DNA of 64,000 bases from an uncultured Phycisphaerales bacterium (GCA_963755915.1 CAVWLP010000003.1:1280001-1344000), one strand, 5' to 3'. Positions 2,898 to 62,669 are shown, numbered from the stretch's first letter. The notes: a model not told the origin generated them from the sequence alone. Program-made: numbers and translations.

Positions 2898-3254
2898 TTA
2901 TCGGCGGGAAACCATGGCGAGGGCGTCGGGGCGGGTTTTGACGATGGTGAAGAGGCGTTCGAGGCAGCAGGTTCGGAAGATGCGCAGGAGCTGCGGGGAC
3001 ATGCCGCAAAGGATGAGGGTTCCGCCGCCGGAGCGGATGCGCTTGCGCATGTTGACGAAGAGGCCGAGCATGGAGCTGCCCATGTATTCGACCTGGCTGA
3101 GATCGACGACCCAGAACTGGGCGCGCTTGGGGTCGAGGGCGCCCAGGACGGAATCGATAAGGCCGTCGATTTCCATGCTGTCGAGAATCGGAGGTAGATT
3201 AAATTGCAGAATATTAGCGGAGGAATCCTGGGTGATCTGGAATCGCTGGGGCAT
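2898..3254 (-). CDS. STAS-domain anti-sigma-factor antagonist
   Basis: VVDLSQVEYMGSSMLGLFV...GGTLILCG. Confidence 0.88.
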   Translation of the reverse strand: MPQRFQITQDSSANILQFNLPPILDSMEIDGLIDSVLGALDPKRAQFWVVDLSQVEYMGSSMLGLFVNMRKRIRSGGGTLILCGMSPQLLRIFRTCCLERLFTIVKTRPDALAMVSRR

Positions 3255-3275: not shown

Positions 3276-4376
3276 CTATCTGACCTGAAGACTATCAGAA
3301 TCGTAAACGATGCCGAGTGGAGCGATCTCGACGGCTTTTCGGACGCCGTCTTTGACGACTTTACCGGCATTCCAGGCGTTGAACTGGACAGCCTGGGCAG
3401 CGGCGAGGCAGGCGGAAACATCGGCCGGGGCGACGTAGGCGGCGAAGCCGGCGCCCATGTTGAAGGTGGCGTAGGCCTCGCGCGTGTCGACGGGGCCGTG
3501 TTTTTGGATGAAACTAAAGATGGGGGGAACGGGGGGTAAAGCGGTGATGCGATAGACGAAGGGTTCGGGGAGGCGCATCAGTTTTCGCCAGCCGTGGCCG
3601 GTGATGTGGGAGAGGTATTTGAGGCGCAGGCCGCGGCGCTGACATTCGGCGACGAAGGGGACGTAGATGGCGGAGGGATCGAGGAGGGCCTGGCCAAAGG
3701 GGCGGCCGTCGTCGATGGGGGTCCGATAACCATCGGGAAGTTTTGCGGCGAGGGCGCGGCAGAGGGTGAGGCCGTTGGTGTGAACGCCGGTGCTGGCAAT
3801 GAGGATGATGGCGTCGCCGTCGGCGATGTCGCCGGCGATGCGAAGAGATTTGGGGCGGATTCGACCGAGGGCGGAGCCGGCGAGGACGATGGTTTGGGGA
3901 TCGACGATGCCGGAAAGGGCGGGCGTTTCGCCACCGGCCCAGACGGCGCCGGCACGGCGGCAGCCTTCGGCGAAGCCGGAGGCGAGATCTTCAGCGCGGG
4001 CGGTGTTGGCGAACCAGGAGGAGTCGCCTACGGCGGCGTGCATGGCGACGGAGATGGGGAGTGCGCCGGTGGTGACCAGGTCGTTGACGATGGTGGCGAC
4101 GGTGTCGATGCCGATGTTTGCGTAATAACTTTTGCCGGTGAGCTGGAGCATGGCGTCGGCGACGAGATTTTTGGTGCCGAGGCCTTCCTCGACGTGGGCG
4201 AGGAATTCATCGGGGGTTTCGAGGAGATAGGCGCTTTCGCCGCGGATGCCCTGGGGCTCGGTGAGGCCGTGGGATTTGAGGGCGGGTATGGTGGTGGCGG
4301 CGGCGCGCTGGCAGGCGCGTTTGAAGGCGTCGAGGGGGCCGTAGTCGACGCCGGCGGATTCGTAGGTGAGGGCCAC
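3276..4376 (-). CDS. purM: phosphoribosylformylglycinamidine cyclo-ligase (AIR synthase)
   Basis: LTYESAGVD, EGLGTK, VNDL, GGETP, STGVHTNG, HITGHG, TFNMGAG. Confidence 0.9.
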   Translation of the reverse strand: MALTYESAGVDYGPLDAFKRACQRAAATTIPALKSHGLTEPQGIRGESAYLLETPDEFLAHVEEGLGTKNLVADAMLQLTGKSYYANIGIDTVATIVNDLVTTGALPISVAMHAAVGDSSWFANTARAEDLASGFAEGCRRAGAVWAGGETPALSGIVDPQTIVLAGSALGRIRPKSLRIAGDIADGDAIILIASTGVHTNGLTLCRALAAKLPDGYRTPIDDGRPFGQALLDPSAIYVPFVAECQRRGLRLKYLSHITGHGWRKLMRLPEPFVYRITALPPVPPIFSFIQKHGPVDTREAYATFNMGAGFAAYVAPADVSACLAAAQAVQFNAWNAGKVVKDGVRKAVEIAPLGIVYDSDSLQVR

Positions 4377-58740: not shown

Positions 58741-58816
58741 AAACCCGCGTTCGACAAGCTCACGCCCTGAGCGAGCGAAGTGAGTCGAAGGGAAACCAGA
58801 AATCCGAATCAATGAC
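58741..58816. repeat. 76-bp repeat, inverted relative to 53822-53897
   Basis: aaacccgcgttcgacaagctcacgccctgagcgagcgaagtgagtcgaagggaaaccaga. Confidence 0.82.
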
Positions 58817-58961
58817 GAATGACGAAATCCGAATTGAGACCTTTGAAAAACCGTCCACCAATCCCAAATAAAACCCGGCGCGGCGACTTCACTCGCCGTG
58901 TCTTCGAAAAGTTGAGGATTTGCTGAAACTGATCGATTCAGGCGCGGTAAAATCTACGGCG

Positions 58962-59516
58962 ATGAAGCAATTCACCCGATGGCTTTTCCGCGGACTCGCT
59001 GCAATCTCGCTGATTCTTTGCATCGTTATTATTGCGCTGGGCATCAGAAGCCATTGGGCCGCCGATTCTGCCGCTGTTTGGGGCAAACCATCCGCCGCGG
59101 GGCAAGTCGATGATGGGTGCATGGTTCGAATTACCTCTTTTCAGGGGAGCATGGAGATTCGACAAACATACCTGCTATGGATAAAGGATGTCAGCTTCTC
59201 AGGCGAACCGGTGCCGGACCGATCACGATCCTTTGGATTTCCAGGATTCCGTTGGCAAACCTCCTGGTTTGGCCCGTCATTGCTGGAATATCCCGGCAAA
59301 TATGATGGGACGACGCGAACGCTCCGTGTGAGTGATTGGTTGCTGGTGCCTGTCACTGCGATCTTGCCGATCATTGGCCTGTTCCGCTGGCTCAAACGCG
59401 ATCGTTTTGCCGCGGATTGCTGTCAGAAATGCGGGTACGATCTTCGCGCCACGCCGGAACGATGTCCGGAATGTGGGACCATCCAGCCGCCGAAAAAAGA
59501 GATTGCCGCGAGCTGA
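58962..59516 (+). CDS. array gene 1: 2-TM protein with C-terminal CxxCGYDLRATPxRCPECG Zn-ribbon
   Basis: RWLFRGLAAISLILC; CQKCGYDLRATPERCPECG. Confidence 0.8.
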   Translation: MKQFTRWLFRGLAAISLILCIVIIALGIRSHWAADSAAVWGKPSAAGQVDDGCMVRITSFQGSMEIRQTYLLWIKDVSFSGEPVPDRSRSFGFPGFRWQTSWFGPSLLEYPGKYDGTTRTLRVSDWLLVPVTAILPIIGLFRWLKRDRFAADCCQKCGYDLRATPERCPECGTIQPPKKEIAAS

Positions 59517-59658
59517 ATCATCCCACAACGTCACGTTGCACTTCATGTACTACAACTATTGCCGGATTCACCAGACGCTTCGCGTCACACCGGCGATGCA
59601 AGCCGGGCTGGCCGATCATGTTTGGGAGCTTGAGGGATTAGTGAACCTTTTGGGCTAA
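59515..59658 (+). pseudogene. IS1-family-like transposase 3' tail fragment (copy 1)
   Basis: HNVTLHFMYYNYCRIHQTLRVTPAMQAGLADHVWELEGLVNLLG*. Confidence 0.75.
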
Positions 59659-59679
59659 GCGATACGCCGTATCTCGCGA

Positions 59680-59970
59680 CTAGAGTTCGTCGCCTCCTAT
59701 TCTAGATTCGTAAAATCCGATGGCAATCGCCCCAAAAAGACATGGCGGAAATATATCCCATGCGATTTTCTCGCACCACAAATTAACGACCCAATCCTGC
59801 CTTGAAACCTCAGTGTATTTCCCGTGGTCAACGACATAAAAGCGACCATTCTGTACCCTTCCAGATTCGGCGCTGCCGCCCATGAGTATGTCTGCAAGAA
59901 CAAACGGCAGGAAGGACAAAATTGCCGCCGCAAAAAACATTTCCCTTATTCGAGTTAGCCTTTTCTTCAC
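59680..59970 (-). CDS. small 2-TM passenger protein (lower GC)
   Basis: 96-aa ORF; GRVQNGRFYV..HGKYTEVS. Confidence 0.55.
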   Translation of the reverse strand: MKKRLTRIREMFFAAAILSFLPFVLADILMGGSAESGRVQNGRFYVVDHGKYTEVSRQDWVVNLWCEKIAWDIFPPCLFGAIAIGFYESRIGGDEL

Positions 59971-60010
59971 GCCAGAAAATATACATCAAAATCAACGTGG
60001 AAATTAAATT

Positions 60011-60185
60011 TTAATTCAAACCGACCCACTACCGAATTCCAGGGAAACCCGACAGGCGACCAATCGCCGCGTGATTGCGGGCAGCCGGGAACGGCAGGCG
60101 AAAGAGGCGCAACGCGAGGGTTGCACAGAACATGTCTGGGAGACTGAGGAATTGGTGGGGCTTATCGACTGAGGCGGGGTAGAAT
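60011..60185 (+). repeat. 175-bp array repeat: IS1-like end + hairpin spacer + transposase-tail/promoter motif (copy a)
   Basis: near-collinear with 61443-61617. Confidence 0.88.
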
Positions 60186-60193
60186 TACCGCGA

Positions 60194-60845
60194 ATGAAAC
60201 GGTTCCGCCGCCGGCAGTTCAACGCGCTAAGTGGGATGTCGTTGGTGCTGCTGGCGGTAACGCTGTCAATGTGGCTTTTGGGGCCAACAAAAGTCTATTG
60301 GAACTGGGCCGGCAGCGGTGGAAATCTGCAATTCTTCGCCAGGACAATCGTCTACTCGCGCGGCAACTATTTTAGTCAACCGGGGGGGCGCTCGCCCCAA
60401 TCAGGCCGTTGACTATTGGATCGCCGGATACACGCATCGTTCCGGAGTGTTTCCAGAAAACTACGATATCCGCAAACAGGGCTGGGTTGGGTTCAACGCC
60501 GATGAATGGTGGATAAGCCTGCCTTGGGTGGCAGTGCTGACGGCCTTGCTCCCTTTGGTTTTGCTCCTTGATGCGCATTTGAAATACACGCGGTGGAGGA
60601 CGATGCGCCGATCGGGTCGCTGTTCTAATTGCGGCTACGATCTTCGCGCCACGCCGGATCGATGCCCCGAATGCGGGACGATTCCATCGCCGAAAAAAGT
60701 GATCGCCGCGAGCTTAATCATCCCCAAAACGTCACGTTGCACTTCATGCACTTTAACTACTGCCGGGTTCACCAGACGCTTCGCGTTACACCAGCGATGC
60801 AAGCCGGGCTGGGCGATCATGTTTGGGAGATTGAGGAGCTGGTAA
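60194..60845 (+). CDS. array gene 2: Zn-ribbon membrane protein (frameshift at G7 60382-60388; stop lost)
   Basis: RRQFNALSGMSLVLL; CSNCGYDLRATPDRCPECG. Confidence 0.7.
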
Positions 60846-60859
60846 CGCTTCTGGATTAA
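60715..60859 (+). pseudogene. IS1-family-like transposase 3' tail fragment (copy 2)
   Basis: NHPQNVTLHFMHFNYCRVHQTLRVTPAMQAGLGDHVWEIEELVTLLD*. Confidence 0.75.
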
Positions 60860-60879
60860 CGCCCCGTTAGAATGTCAGC

Positions 60880-61446
60880 GTGAAACGCCGCTTATTCAAT
60901 GTGATGGCGGGGCTGTCGCTGGTGCTTGCGTTCGTTGTATGCATTCAGTGGTATCGCGGCTACCAAGAACAGGATCAATTGTCGATCCGGCGTTATGTCG
61001 GGGTGCGCGAACATCCGACCCAAGAGCAATTCGGTGTCGTTTGCTGCCAAGGGGCGTTCTGGTTCTATGCAAGCTGGCAGCGGTCCGACACAATAAACGC
61101 TGCGCCTTCATTGCTTGTCGAATGGCAGCAGCAGCTAGACCTTGGCTGGCGCGTGCGCATCAGAACCTACATCAACCCCATCTATCCTTCGTTTCGCACC
61201 GGATGGATTAACAGATTTGGCTTTCACGCTTCCCACGACAACCGTGCCGTCAATGTCCTGATCCCCATGTGGTTTTGTGCATGTTGCACAATCGCCTTGC
61301 CATTAGCTTGGATACTCTTTGCTCGAAGCCGTGTCCTTCGGGGGCATTACCCTGGAGCAAAGCCCTGCCCGCAATGTGGGTATGACCTTCGCGCCACGCC
61401 TGATCGCTGTCCGGAGTGTGGAAAATCCCCCGATAAAACTATTTAA
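60880..61446 (+). CDS. array gene 3: Zn-ribbon membrane protein
   Basis: MKRRLFNVMAGLSLVL; CPQCGYDLRATPDRCPECG. Confidence 0.8.
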   Translation: MKRRLFNVMAGLSLVLAFVVCIQWYRGYQEQDQLSIRRYVGVREHPTQEQFGVVCCQGAFWFYASWQRSDTINAAPSLLVEWQQQLDLGWRVRIRTYINPIYPSFRTGWINRFGFHASHDNRAVNVLIPMWFCACCTIALPLAWILFARSRVLRGHYPGAKPCPQCGYDLRATPDRCPECGKSPDKTI

Positions 61447-61617
61447 TTTCAAACTGCCCACTACCGAATTCCGGAGAAACTTGACAGGCGACAAATCGCC
61501 GCGTGATTGCGGGCAGCCGGGAACGGCAGGCGAAAGAGGCGTGACGCGAGGGCTGCACAGAACATGTTTGTGAGATTGAGGAATTGCTGAAGCTGATCGA
61601 CTGACGCGCGGTACAAT
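61443..61617 (+). repeat. 175-bp array repeat (copy b)
   Basis: ttaatttcaaactgcccactacc gaattcc...gaggaattgctgaagctgatcgactgacgcgcggtacaat. Confidence 0.88.
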
Positions 61618-61678
61618 TTCCAGCCGATCAACTGCGTTCTACATTCGTTCCGGATTTAAGAGCCGGCTCGGAGGAACG

Positions 61679-62017
61679 GTGAAATCGCACATACGCCACG
61701 AAATTGTCAATTTGGTTCTCGCCATCCCGATACTCGTGATTTCAGTCTGGATCGGATCGGAGACGCCGGATTTGCTCAATCCTTTTAATCACGGTTATAT
61801 GCCGGATCTGTGGATTCTGGTGCTTCCGGCACTCCTTGCGTCAGCAGGGATTGTGGTAAATAACCTCTTGGCCATCATAATCTATTTTTATCAAGGAACT
61901 CCGCGCCAGCCGTCAACGGCATGCTCCCAATGCGGCTACGACCTCCGCGCCACGCCCGACCGTTGCCCGGAATGCGGAACAATCCCACCCCCGAAAAAAG
62001 AGATTGTCGCGACGTGA
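61679..62017 (+). CDS. array gene 4: Zn-ribbon membrane protein with unrelated N-terminus
   Basis: ggagga RBS; CSQCGYDLRATPDRCPECG..PKKEIVAT. Confidence 0.78.
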   Translation: MKSHIRHEIVNLVLAIPILVISVWIGSETPDLLNPFNHGYMPDLWILVLPALLASAGIVVNNLLAIIIYFYQGTPRQPSTACSQCGYDLRATPDRCPECGTIPPPKKEIVAT

Positions 62018-62030
62018 ATCACGTCCACGC

Positions 62031-62439
62031 TCAGGCAGTCTGCGCGAGCAGGGCGTTGAATCCGGCTTGGGTAAAATGGCGATCGCCCGTGAGCGCATCT
62101 GTCAGGCCCTGGCGCTGCATTGTTACGAACGACGTGCAATCGGTCAGGCTCCAGGATTGATCGGCTCGAGCACGGAACAAATCGGCCGCGGATTGAAATA
62201 ACTCCTGTGATGGCGGAATCAGTTGGCAAAGCGGATCGCTGTCAAAGCGATCCAGGAGCCCAACGAATATGGCTCGATCGCGCGGGGCTGAAAGCCCGTC
62301 ACCCACTTCCGTAAACACCACGCAGTTGTGACAATCAGACCTTCGTAAGTTTGTGAGAATTCGCGAGCCGCGCCGTGAGCGGCGTCGCGCGGGTTCAACA
62401 GTGCGAAAAATAATAGCTGTCGGCAAAGACCGCCTTCAC
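62031..62439 (-). CDS. PIN-domain (VapC-like) toxin (frameshifted)
   Basis: VFADS..FALLNPRD..H; WSLTDCTSF..M; ALTGDRHFTQAGF. Confidence 0.82.
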
Positions 62440-62669
62440 TTCTTCTCCCGACCATGAAGGTAGTGATCATGATTCTCAGCCATGTCCGCTGGAAGATCGG
62501 GGCATGATCCGACAAGGTTCCCGAACCGCTCGAGCAATGTGCTCGCCGGCTGGGGATCGGTGCTCGGCCGCGGAGGTTGGACTGCAACCTCCACCTCCGC
62601 ACCCTCAGGTAACTGGACCGCCTGATCCAATACGACCACGCCGTTCTTGATATGGCCTCGATAGGTCAT
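62436..62669 (-). CDS. putative antitoxin
   Basis: MTYRGHIKNGVVVLD..LPEGAEV; DLPADMAENHDHYLHG; overlaps the toxin start. Confidence 0.75.
   Translation of the reverse strand: MTYRGHIKNGVVVLDQAVQLPEGAEVEVAVQPPRPSTDPQPASTLLERFGNLVGSCPDLPADMAENHDHYLHGREKK

Follow-up and report, generated by a model that had tools for sequence, protein, structure and literature searches.

The array of Zn-ribbon genes beside ychF in the genome of an uncultured Phycisphaerales bacterium (G000) is probably a graveyard in which right-end modules have accumulated from an insertion sequence of the IS1 family that carries passenger genes (tIS). The array occupies 58.9-62.0 kb of the window, the whole stretch of 64,000 nucleotides that was analysed, and holds four Zn-ribbon genes, three transposase tails of about 140 nt (or cut), three shorter transposase remnants and two right inverted repeats (IRRs). 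The initial annotation had read the same features as an integron-like capture system for a library of variable surface domains.

Zn-ribbon genes and transposase remnants in the window

The features of the array and of its right border are as follows.

58912..58961, plus strand: transposase 3'-end remnant upstream of gene 1, reading ..LLKLID with a mutated stop codon
58962..59516, plus strand: Zn-ribbon gene 1, 184 aa, with N-terminal anchor, extracytoplasmic part and second TM helix
59517..59658, plus strand: tail A1, 3' fragment of the transposase gene with roughly its final 47 codons, ending ..NVTLHFMYYNYCRIHQTLRVTPAMQAGLADHVWELEGLVNLLG and a stop
59680..59970, minus strand: putative ORF of 96 aa that reads like a membrane protein and lies in the cargo slot, after tail A1 and before the IRR
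60015..60033, plus strand: IRR copy 1, TTCAAACCGACCCACTACC, 94.7% identical to the IRR of the complete element
60034..60127, plus strand: post-IRR spacer, 94 nt, first part of the 175-bp scaffold (D3)
60128..60193, plus strand: transposase 3'-end remnant upstream of gene 2, ending ..EHVWETEELVGLID and a stop, plus an intergenic TAGAAT box
60194..60845, plus strand: Zn-ribbon gene 2, broken; N-terminal anchor 60194-60412, C-terminal part 60318-60845
60686..60859, plus strand: tail A2, the same transposase 3' fragment again, attached where gene 2 ends
60880..61446, plus strand: Zn-ribbon gene 3, 188 aa, ending KSPDKTI
61446..61465, plus strand: IRR copy 2, ATTTCAAACTGCCCACTACC, one base deleted
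61466..61678, plus strand: second spacer copy (61466-61549), transposase 3'-end remnant (61550-61604, ..EELLKLID and a stop) and TACAAT box
61679..62017, plus strand: Zn-ribbon gene 4, 112 aa, atypical, with two hydrophobic segments
62018..62032, plus strand: tail A3, transposase fragment cut after about 15 nt
62031..62426, minus strand: right border, PIN-like ORF (PIN E 0.0054, 17.8 bits, under the cut-off of 23.6)
62436..62669, minus strand: right border, 77-aa upstream ORF (92% conserved in the sister species G001), then ychF

We recovered all four plus-strand genes reported with CxxCGYDLRATP[D/E]RCPECG, the motifs lying at 59421, 60621, 61366 and 61922 of the window (C3:1339421, 1340621, 1341366 and 1341922). 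The ORF listing gave plus-strand frames at 58920-59516 (containing the gene 1 ATG at 58962), 60194-60412 plus 60318-60845 (two frames), 60880-61446 and 61679-62017. The C-terminal part of gene 1 reads CQKCGYDLRATPERCPECG and its protein end is TIQPPKKEIAAS, while gene 4 ends TIPPPKKEIVAT. The gene at 60194 carries the motif but is broken: a frameshift separates its N-terminal from its C-terminal part, and its stop codon is lost, so that the reading frame continues into tail A2. A run of seven G (G7) lies at about 60383-60389, and a short-read contig spans it with no difference.

The encoded proteins are part of a very large planctomycete family without known function; gene 3 has at least 6609 homologs, every one unnamed or 'hypothetical'. 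The family plan comprises an N-terminal basic anchor with a TM helix, a beta-rich middle, a second TM helix and the C-terminal CxxCGYDLR..CPECG, and is followed by genes 1 and 3 and, though frameshifted, by gene 2, while gene 4 lacks the usual N-terminal anchor and beta domain. The invariant columns of an 81-homolog alignment include C163, C166, G167, Y168, D169, R171, C177, P178, E179 and C180, and the AlphaFold model of gene 3 (pLDDT 80.6) has a helix at 2-27, six strands and a helix at 130-154. BLASTP among window genes 1-4 gave no match at E 0.01 or better beyond the anchor; the part of gene 3 before the motif is 90.8% identical to a paralog at C2:2031873.

A repeat search placed both scaffolds of the initial annotation where they had been described, with a regular period of 1.2-1.43 kb: D1 at 59413-59524, 60613-60724 and 61914-62025 (later copies 83% and 72% identical to the first), D4 at 59522-59658 and 60723-60859 (85%), and D3 at 60010-60189 and 61442-61621 (87%). 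Since the scaffolds recur at other loci of the same genome with 74-93% nucleotide identity, the repeats are not due to chance. The window tails are fused exactly to the stop codon of the upstream Zn-ribbon gene, as confirmed for tail A1 and gene 1 by tblastn and a junction alignment, and tail A3 ends near 62032, at the end of the minus-strand PIN-like ORF. The third, shorter kind of transposase remnant, comprising the last ~45-60 nt, precedes genes 1, 2 and 4 (58912-59011, 60128-60228 and 61550-61617), and a 5' scaffold profile matched before each of them (C3:1338891-1339005, E 8.8e-24; E 2.7e-27; and E 1.6e-18 for profile positions 4-79 only). The stretch 58912..58961 includes a predicted intergenic TAAAAT -10-like box, and the TACAAT box before gene 4 is followed by 60 nt without the expected start codon. 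The initial annotation had taken the IS1-derived ends as promoters; however, the TAnAAT promoter-like element also precedes the start codons of Zn-ribbon genes without an IS relic, and the box therefore belongs to the gene family and not to the IS.

A complete IS1-family element with a Zn-ribbon gene as cargo

An intact IS1-family transposase with matching inverted repeats, which the initial annotation had proposed to look for, is absent from the window and present at C2:3550800-3554413, in a complete 3.6-kb copy with the ends GGTAGTGGGTCAGTTTGA (IRL) ... TCAAACTGACCCACTACC and an 8-bp target duplication, CGAAATCG, on both sides. The intact order is IRL, small Lys-rich ORF, variable left cargo, transposase, right cargo slot and IRR. 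The left cargo of this copy consists of an M78 peptidase and an HTH protein (Peptidase_M78 71.6 bits, HTH_3 42.8 bits), and the right slot, roughly 0.55 kb, contains the gene of a 177-aa membrane protein that has two TM helices and, at its C-terminus, a Zn ribbon. Because this Zn-ribbon gene lies inside a complete copy with a target duplication, it is transposon cargo, and the suggestion of IS1 elements carrying passenger genes thus holds for this genome. The evidence of current mobility is one target duplication, because only one complete Zn-ribbon-bearing copy was found. The content of the right slot varies: G000 has a Zn-ribbon gene there and G001 another membrane-like ORF, and window unit 1 has the reverse-strand ORF (no Pfam or NCBIfam match). 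A 2.4-kb relative is present in two copies, 99.8% identical, with 20-nt inverted repeats GGTACTGGTTCAGTTTGAAT / ATTCAAACTGAACCAGTACC, and its copy at C2:1476047-1478488 is flanked by the 8-bp duplication AATCGCCG.

The assignment of the tail to an IS1 transposase was confirmed by tblastn and by alignment to the transposase 3' end, the full-length homolog (286 aa, C2:3552978-3553838) matching Pfam PF03400 DDE_Tnp_IS1 with 29.5 bits (cut-off 24.1, E 1e-6). Its best NCBIfam family is transpos_IS1, with 58.3 bits, below the curated cut-off of 100.

Every window scaffold maps onto the complete element, with the tails at 90-92.5% identity, the IRRs at its end, and the short transposase ends together with the gene starts. 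Tail A1 is 92.5% identical to the transposase gene over 59537-59643 and tail A2 90.2% identical to the element over 60738-60849, while 58912-59011 aligns with element positions 3011-3110 (70%) and 60128-60228 with positions 2995-3095 (75%). The caaacYGcccactacc sequence, previously described as terminal-repeat-like, is the right inverted repeat, paired with the IRL in the complete copy; the sequence of IRR copy 1 closes the complete element and, inverted, opens it, and 61374-61465 aligns with positions 3522-3614, the element end. Gene 3 sits where the complete element has its right cargo, with a transposase tail before it and an IRR after it. The 94-nt spacer has copies at C2:3508380-3508226 and C2:3505607-3505458, and neither the IS left-end interior nor the transposase gene matches it significantly. 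Within 58.9-62.0 kb there is no IRL and no intact transposase, the fragments covering residues from about 228 onward at most; as the left ends are missing, a target duplication is not readable there.

Spread of the modules and origin of the array

Of the C-terminal-type Zn-ribbon motifs in G000, 16/33 have an IS1 feature no more than 1 kb away, compared with 0.79% of the genome, although these 16 fall in 8 loci and so are not independent; none of the six N-terminal-type motifs has one. Conversely, the 5' scaffold profile found 28 sites, 23 of which have a Zn-ribbon motif within 1.2 kb downstream. The association of paralogs with the scaffolds anticipated by the initial annotation is thus genome-wide, and copies of the composite blocks sit at 8 scattered loci. 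Part of the Zn-ribbon family owes its spread within this lineage to the transposon.

According to the graveyard reading, copies of the element would have inserted into a resident copy's transposase gene, in its 3' part, or have arisen there by duplication. Left parts would subsequently have been lost, and the composite blocks would later have been duplicated in tandem at the 1.2-1.43 kb period and dispersed. Homologous recombination or gene conversion may then keep the conserved blocks (57-nt Zn-ribbon motif, tail, intergenic promoter-like box and first ~15 codons) alike and the gene bodies different. Nested insertion is seen directly at C2:1389282-1389301, where an IRR abuts transposase residues 174-274, and in G007, where an IRR-like sequence comes after a Zn-ribbon stop and the transposase then sets in at codon ~210 or ~227. 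Against this reading stands the junction at which the Zn-ribbon stop codon joins transposase N228 directly, with no IRR between, identical in at least 8 copies, which simple nested insertion does not yield. It would need an extra deletion or a tandem-duplication origin, and a single origin combined with the low tail dN/dS would need gene conversion from functional copies. The 94-nt spacer, with no significant match in the IS sequences compared, and the 243-nt modules of the C2:3541-3543 array also count against the graveyard reading.

Such a junction would result from plain tandem duplication, in which a stretch beginning at transposase codon ~228 and closing with the Zn-ribbon stop was copied in one element and the copies diverged in place, without later transposition or recombination. 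The regular period agrees with this, as do the tails of the C2:3541-3543 array, which differ neutrally (dN/dS 1 or more). However, this array consists of three 243-nt modules, 93-94% identical, separated by 415-465 nt without similarity, its three genes gave no BLASTP match to each other at E 0.01 or better, and such modules around unrelated bodies are not predicted by plain duplication. Gene bodies within arrays are not detectably related, in spite of 80-94% identity between the non-coding tails. Most differences between tails from separate loci are synonymous, and composite blocks sit at 8 dispersed loci. We therefore regard plain duplication as quite improbable.

The tails have a dN/dS of 0.1-0.4 between loci and of 1 or more within one array, from a small sample of 43 codons, over which winA1 and winA2 show 10.5 synonymous and 8.5 non-synonymous differences. 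Tail divergence thus resembles the divergence of coding sequence and fits tails derived from separate, once-functional copies. The low between-locus values would also agree with a tail that selection keeps because it works as a small gene or as a regulatory RNA, such as a truncated-transposase inhibitor of transposition, as would the conservation of tails in many genomes of the family and the lack of an internal stop in 10/11 G000 tails listed with at least 43 codons (C2:3506148 has one). Yet there is no consistent start, the ATG-bearing frame of A1 being out of the tail frame by a 1-nt indel; several copies contain non-conservative replacements (e.g. LRFTHLNYRR, YYNDCR); the A3 and G001 copies are only about 15 nt long; and a sigma-70 scan detected no plus-strand promoter-like site, which is weak evidence for a planctomycete. 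A functional tail is therefore very improbable.

Variation among relatives and comparison with known systems

Similar arrays are present in sister species, and those of G007 and G011 resemble that of the window. The order tail, Zn-ribbon gene and, where seen, IRR occurs in G004, G005, G007, G010, G011, G017 and G021, and also in G014 (unpublished). As the initial annotation had expected, the content of the ychF site varies, with 0, 2 or 4 Zn-ribbon genes across the species compared: four in G000, two plus an IRR-like sequence in G001, and none between ychF and the adjoining acyltransferase gene in G002, G003 and G010, while G008 has a DUF1559 gene there. The gene 1 ortholog of G001 is 81% identical in protein, with 88.5% DNA identity up to 59479, and gene 4 resembles the second Zn-ribbon gene of G001 in the last third only, followed by the same junction as at tail A3, with a similarly short tail (about 15 nt). 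Contigs from four metagenome runs did not clearly show the locus arranged in another way. With scaffolds elsewhere, a variable locus, associated paralogs and a tail that matches IS1, none of the observations named beforehand as refuting was made.

These data also bear on a cassette system in which the conserved blocks are selected homology anchors for the exchange, reordering and amplification of gene bodies, leading to a population-level library of surface domains. In its favour, similarity between units sets in abruptly in every scaffold comparison, at 0-10 nt ahead of the first Cys codon, the G000-G001 homology in gene 1 stops within a few bases after CPECG, the 93-94% identical 243-nt modules surround unrelated bodies, and the tails keep open frames and a low dN/dS. 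Furthermore, among 71 transposase matches outside G000 in a hand tally, 46 are C-terminal only and 7 N-terminal or middle only, but this tally is biased, since conservation of the protein is strongest in the tail. On the other hand, exchange at the anchors shifts whole genes and makes no new proteins, each unit has a separate promoter-like box, so that no expression site is evident, and several units are frameshifted or truncated. Four Zn-ribbon-rich genomes of the family gave no IS1 match, and the two of them that were inspected contain Zn-ribbon tandem arrays without IS1 relics; IS1 pieces are therefore not needed for such arrays. A dedicated recombinase was also not found, the nearest tyrosine recombinases being generic and 3-6 kb off. 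We thus consider the cassette system unlikely.

An integron was rejected. The array resembles one superficially, as a row of short, mostly same-strand genes between repeats, but has no IntI, attI or common promoter, and its repeats are transposase and inverted-repeat remnants. In the repeat search the sole inverted pairs were three long-range ones (70-77%), and nothing resembling attC turned up between the genes. The absence of an integrase from the window was confirmed, as 0/24 PF00589 matches of the genome fall within it. The nearest tyrosine recombinase, 5.9 kb right of the window array (C3:1347884), matches generic Xer models only (47.9 bits or less) with no match to the integron-integrase model, and the recombinase near the C2 array reaches 48.5 bits with that model against a cut-off of 265. 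The proposed capture mechanism is likewise not upheld, since an ordinary transposon IRL-cargo-tnp-ZnR-IRR with a target duplication, whose right ends have accumulated, accounts for the layout, and the window lacks a left end and an intact transposase, with one of four genes frameshifted and one atypical. Truncation or frameshifts also affect other IS-linked copies in the genome.

IS1 termini begin GGT..., as does the element here, and 8-9 bp target duplications are typical of IS1. The element shares with the IS1 family the DDE_Tnp_IS1 domain, the 8-bp duplications and the C-terminal YN..R.H.TL..TPAM.AG...W motif. In contrast to the classical insA / insB' -1 frameshift layout, its transposase of about 286 aa is a single uninterrupted ORF, which presumably places it in the single-ORF IS1 subgroup (ISMhu11 in ISfinder, for which a literature search found no paper); it also differs in its NCBIfam score and in its length of 2.4-3.6 kb with two cargo regions. 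Nested or degenerate IS clusters ('IS graveyards') contain truncated copies inserted into each other with left ends lost, and multigene families homogenised by gene conversion have conserved blocks alike and intervening sequence different. Unlike in such graveyards, the pieces kept here are almost always the right end with cargo gene and promoter-like box, which suggests retention for the cargo gene.

The concept of the tIS, an insertion sequence with passenger genes, is stated in PMC7986276. As in that statement, non-transposition genes within the inverted repeats move with the element, the complete copy having cargo and a target duplication; compared with the concept as stated there, the right-hand cargo here belongs to a large chromosomal paralog family of Zn-ribbon membrane proteins, and the right-slot content differs between copies and species. 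Our literature search found no paper describing Zn-ribbon cargo of such an IS. The known kind is the insertion sequence with passenger genes, and what is new is this IS1-family element and its right-end graveyard. There is a small chance that the IS1 tail, the nearly invariant 57-nt Zn-ribbon coding motif and the promoter/anchor block now serve, by co-option, as homology anchors for a periplasmic-domain repertoire. If so, transposons would have seeded a variable surface-protein locus that recombination drives with no dedicated site-specific recombinase, and this planctomycete lineage would reorder, amplify and exchange fast-evolving periplasmic domains via co-opted anchors.

Four Zn-ribbon genes and their repeated surroundings

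At 58.9-62.0 kb of the window, we found four plus-strand ORFs with the C-terminal motif CxxCGYDLRATP[D/E]RCPECG (Zn-ribbon genes 1-4), with transposase 3' fragments joined to genes 1, 2 and 4 (tails A1-A3). The ORF and motif searches thus confirmed the four genes of the initial annotation as to motif and strand, but gene 2 lies in two frames, broken about a G7 run, and its stop codon is lost, and gene 4 is atypical, without the usual N-terminal anchor and middle domain of the Zn-ribbon family. The two repeated scaffolds described earlier, with a third, shortened copy of the Zn-ribbon-plus-tail one ending at ~62032, were reproduced by a repeat search.

Zn-ribbon genes (ORF and motif), promoter-like boxes and repeats (repeat search) of the array, in window coordinates
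58962-59516, plus strand: Zn-ribbon gene 1
60194-60845, plus strand: Zn-ribbon gene 2, broken
60880-61446, plus strand: Zn-ribbon gene 3
61679-62017, plus strand: Zn-ribbon gene 4
58941-58964, 60173-60196, 60860-60882: stretches with the GGTAnAAT box
59413-59658, 60613-60859 and, shortened, 61914-62032: Zn-ribbon-plus-tail block, 72-85% identity
60010-60189, 61442-61621: 180-nt block, 87% identity

The GGTAnAAT box lies 7-9 nt upstream of the start codon in most Zn-ribbon genes, some of them without an IS relic, and its spacing suggests leaderless or near-leaderless mRNAs. The IS1 ends had been taken for the source of the promoters; however, a TAnAAT box 12-15 nt before the start also occurs at genes without an IS relic (e.g. 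C2:1198388, C2:2708480 and C2:4296624, on another contig of the genome), and is a property of the Zn-ribbon gene family, not of the IS. A promoter and terminator scan gave two promoter-like sites, both on the minus strand and no more than in shuffles. Ribosome slippage at the A6G run in ..CCGAAAAAAGAG.., leading from the Zn-ribbon frame into the tail frame, was rejected, since it is the tail frame, not the Zn-ribbon frame, that is in phase with the A_AAA_AAG heptamer; a 1-nt indel ahead of the tail in copy A1 also speaks against it.

A complete IS1-family element with Zn-ribbon cargo

When the tail peptide was searched by tblastn, full-length ORFs were found elsewhere in the genome, the closest of which (C2:3552978-3553838, 286 aa) is 90-92.5% identical in DNA to the window tails. 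Its product matches Pfam DDE_Tnp_IS1 with 29.5 bits against a cut-off of 24.1, and its best NCBIfam family is transpos_IS1, under that model's curated cut-off; the assignment of the tails to IS1 was thereby upheld. Two 2.4-kb copies of a related element, 99.8% identical and with an 8-bp duplication, define the ends as 20-nt inverted repeats, GGTACTGGTTCAGTTTGAAT / ATTCAAACTGAACCAGTACC. The same kind of end, noticed earlier as a 'terminal-repeat-like' motif, bounds a complete 3614-bp element outside the window (C2:3550800-3554413), which has CGAAATCG on either side and combines an intact transposase with matching inverted repeats.

Order of features in the complete element
1: left inverted repeat (IRL)
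2: 95-aa Lys-rich ORF
3: three minus-strand cargo ORFs, namely Peptidase_M78 (71.6 bits), HTH_3 (42.8 bits) and one without assignment
4: transposase, followed by 21 intergenic nt
5: 177-aa Zn-ribbon gene, C-terminus KIVEKTI
6: right inverted repeat (IRR), 2 nt after the Zn-ribbon stop

Since this Zn-ribbon gene lies inside a complete element, between inverted repeats and flanking CGAAATCG, it is the cargo of a real transposon. Two further complete elements of 2.9-3.5 kb, at G001:C4 in the sister species G001 (loci L039 and L040), have the closest transposase relatives (84-85% identity). Their left cargo consists of ORFs of 222 and 132 aa, and their right cargo is a membrane-like ORF that lacks a Zn ribbon; both cargo slots therefore vary between species. 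The Lys-rich ORF (86-95 aa, ..KGG.ARAK.LS...R..IAKKAA..RW) stands just inside the IRL of three different IS1-family elements (loci L056:115-402; L057:2264-2524, minus; L039:5576-5863, minus); it has no Pfam match and may encode an InsA-like DNA-binding regulator.

Upstream of the complete element, a 7.4-kb segment (C2:3543379-3550817; loci L059 and L056) runs from an IRR (3543379-98) to the element's IRL (3550800). One ~24-nt sequence marks both of its ends, as CGAAATCGGGTATTGGTATATTCT and, inverted, as the reverse complement with 2 differences; the pattern resembles what an inversion or an intramolecular transposition would leave behind. IS1 relics, Zn-ribbon genes and tyrosine recombinases are densely packed in the surrounding region (C2:3505000-3567000), which may be a large mobile-element island.

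Mapped on the complete element, the array resolves into three units; neither an IRL nor transposase residues before ~228 were found in it.

Units of the array (alignment to the complete element)
Unit 1: transposase-end remnant (from 58912), gene 1, tail A1 fused to the gene 1 stop, minus-strand 96-aa ORF in the cargo slot, IRR 60015-60033
60034-60127: 94-nt spacer after the unit 1 IRR
Unit 2: transposase-end remnant (from 60128), gene 2 (broken), tail A2, gene 3 in the native cargo position, IRR 61446-61465
61466-61549: spacer again, after the unit 2 IRR
Unit 3: transposase-end remnant (from 61550), gene 4, tail A3 cut after ~15 nt at a PIN-like ORF

The array is thus best read as the accumulated, partly decayed right ends of a cargo-bearing IS1-family transposon. 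These ends, which each bring along a Zn-ribbon gene and the promoter-like box of that gene, would have piled up by nested insertion, duplication and recombination. In relative G007, an IRR-like sequence separates the Zn-ribbon stop from transposase codon ~227 or ~210, and at C2:1389301 an IRR abuts transposase residue 174; nested insertion into a resident transposase 3' part is thus seen repeatedly. The junction of the window genome, relative G011 and G001, where the stop runs straight into codon N228 and the IRR is absent, calls for one more deletion or for an origin by tandem duplication.

The ~94-nt spacer lies directly 3' of the IRR in all four copies (window 60034-60127 and 61466-61549; C2:3508355-3508226 and C2:3505586-3505458; 74-88% identity). 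A head-to-tail junction, with the spacer as left-end interior of the IS, was rejected, as local alignments with the left ends of three elements, and with the 3' region of the transposase, gave z -0.6 to 1.2 relative to 300 shuffles; only the complete element's right flank scored (z 3.6-4.1, 16-nt match).

Zn-ribbon genes and IS1 relics in the genome and the family

The Zn-ribbon motif occurs 39 times in the genome, 33 times C-terminally and 6 times N-terminally in a different architecture. Many C-terminal-type motifs neighbour IS1 features: 16 of 33 have one within 1 kb, compared with 0.79% of the genome being such neighbourhood, whereas the count for the 6 N-terminal-type motifs is zero. Because the 16 motifs fall in 8 loci, a binomial P of 2.5e-25 is too strong a figure for this link. 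A nucleotide profile built on the 5' scaffold (final ~55 nt of the transposase gene, stop, GCGGTAnAAT, ~8 nt, start and first 15 codons) has 28 sites, 23 with a same-strand Zn-ribbon motif within 1.2 kb, and links two genes earlier tallied as unlinked (C2:272371 and C2:2033654).

Of 24 other genomes in the family, 19 gave a match to the transposase; none of 16 genomes outside the family did. By hand count, the 71 matches outside the window genome comprise 18 full-length, 46 C-terminal-only (38 beginning at residue 200 or later) and 7 N-terminal or middle-only matches, although detection favours the tail, because it is the best-conserved part of the transposase. Within the family, 25 of 31 genomes contain the motif pattern, with at most 37 occurrences each (reversed-pattern control, 0). 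The order transposase tail, Zn-ribbon gene and, where seen, IRR recurs in G004, G005, G007, G010, G011, G017 and G021, and the tail/Zn-ribbon order also in the unpublished genome G014, with window-like arrays in G007 and G011; G003 and G009 showed no such adjacency, and in G001 only short remnants were seen. Four genomes (G042, G047, G054 and G043) hold 13-37 motif copies yet no transposase match at E 1e-5 or better, which counts against a required role of IS1. The two inspected loci, in G042 and G047, are tandem Zn-ribbon arrays, spaced at 0.65-0.9 kb and free of IS1 relics.

The four window genes gave only sub-threshold Zn-ribbon matches in Pfam and NCBIfam, and the ESM Atlas returned unnamed planctomycete clusters only. 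Among 8000 scored sequences, at least 6609 are homologs of gene 3 (E 0.001 or better); all are unnamed or 'hypothetical', a few are from Tepidisphaeraceae MAGs and many share ~30% identity across the full length. In the predicted model of gene 3 (pLDDT 80.6), an N-terminal helix precedes a six-stranded beta domain, which includes a disordered loop, and a second helix leads to the Zn ribbon. No PDB entry matched it in Foldseek at E 0.001 or better, and the best VIA-align wide hit (Z 7.1) aligned only the two helices; no solved structure matches the model convincingly.

Alike modules, unlike bodies, and the origin of the array

With the motif removed, the Zn-ribbon proteins are barely alignable: BLASTP matches mostly cover the first ~30 residues, and close similarity is confined to three pairs (90.8%, gene 3 and C2:2031873; 81.6% over 38 residues; 40%). 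In contrast, the tails are 76-96% identical in DNA, and the C2:3541-3543 array has three 243-nt modules, 93-94% identical, with nothing alike in between. Over 43 codons, and with small numbers, tails of different loci differ mainly synonymously (dN/dS 0.1-0.4), and those within that array neutrally.

Near-identical modules do surround unrelated gene bodies, and this mosaic is the one feature that keeps alive the reading of the modules as recombination anchors, which we regard as improbable. The integron-like mechanism once proposed is not borne out: integrons are marked by an IntI-type integrase and attC sites, whereas the window has no tyrosine recombinase, the nearest ones are generic and not IntI, a general repeat search of the window found no attC-like inverted repeats, and the layout is that of cargo transposon right ends. 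Metagenome contigs from four soil runs of one study, which may stem from the sample behind the genome assembly, covered most array junctions without differences and gave no clear alternative arrangement; two joints were seen at 90% likeness (59628>60012 with 30 other letters, and 61983>61566 running back), with paralogs or relatives as a possible source. Literature searches on IS1-family passenger genes and on ISMhu11 gave no relevant description, nor, by title or abstract, did the papers listed for planctomycete zinc-ribbon IS passengers.

The content beside ychF indeed varies, with 0, 2 or 4 Zn-ribbon genes across the compared species.

Orthologous site
G002, G003, G010: ychF adjoins an acyltransferase gene
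G008: the ychF/acyltransferase site plus a DUF1559 gene
G001 (closest relative): DUF1559 gene, gene 1 ortholog, second Zn-ribbon gene, IRR-like sequence, 77-aa ORF, ychF
G000 (window genome): four Zn-ribbon genes

In G001, the gene 1 ortholog is 88.5% identical in DNA, and the second Zn-ribbon gene has the same stop|N228 junction with a ~14-nt tail. Homology of gene 1 between the two species stops within a few bases past the CPECG codons, which identifies the motif as a rearrangement breakpoint. The stretch from the DUF1559 gene to gene 1 (58743-58924) is longer in the window than in G001 by ~157 nt, which hold repeated gaaatccgaat-like words. Between the array and ychF (62031-62669, minus strand), the PIN-like ORF (Pfam PIN E 0.0054, below cut-off) and the 77-aa ORF upstream of it form a toxin-antitoxin-like pair; the 77-aa ORF is 92% conserved in G001, where the PIN ORF has no tblastn match.

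A puzzling repeat architecture is thus explained by an ordinary mechanism, and an IS1-family transposon with two cargo slots is documented in a soil planctomycete lineage. For annotation, the 'tails' should not be called genes, and the module/body mosaic offers a concrete case for studies of gene conversion in multigene families. The right-hand cargo is one of a very large family of proteins without assigned function. Since about half of the family's copies in this genome are located on IS1 relics, its spread and amplification were probably aided by transposition, and this gives a lead on its biology, because cargo kept by transposons often benefits the element or the host under selection.
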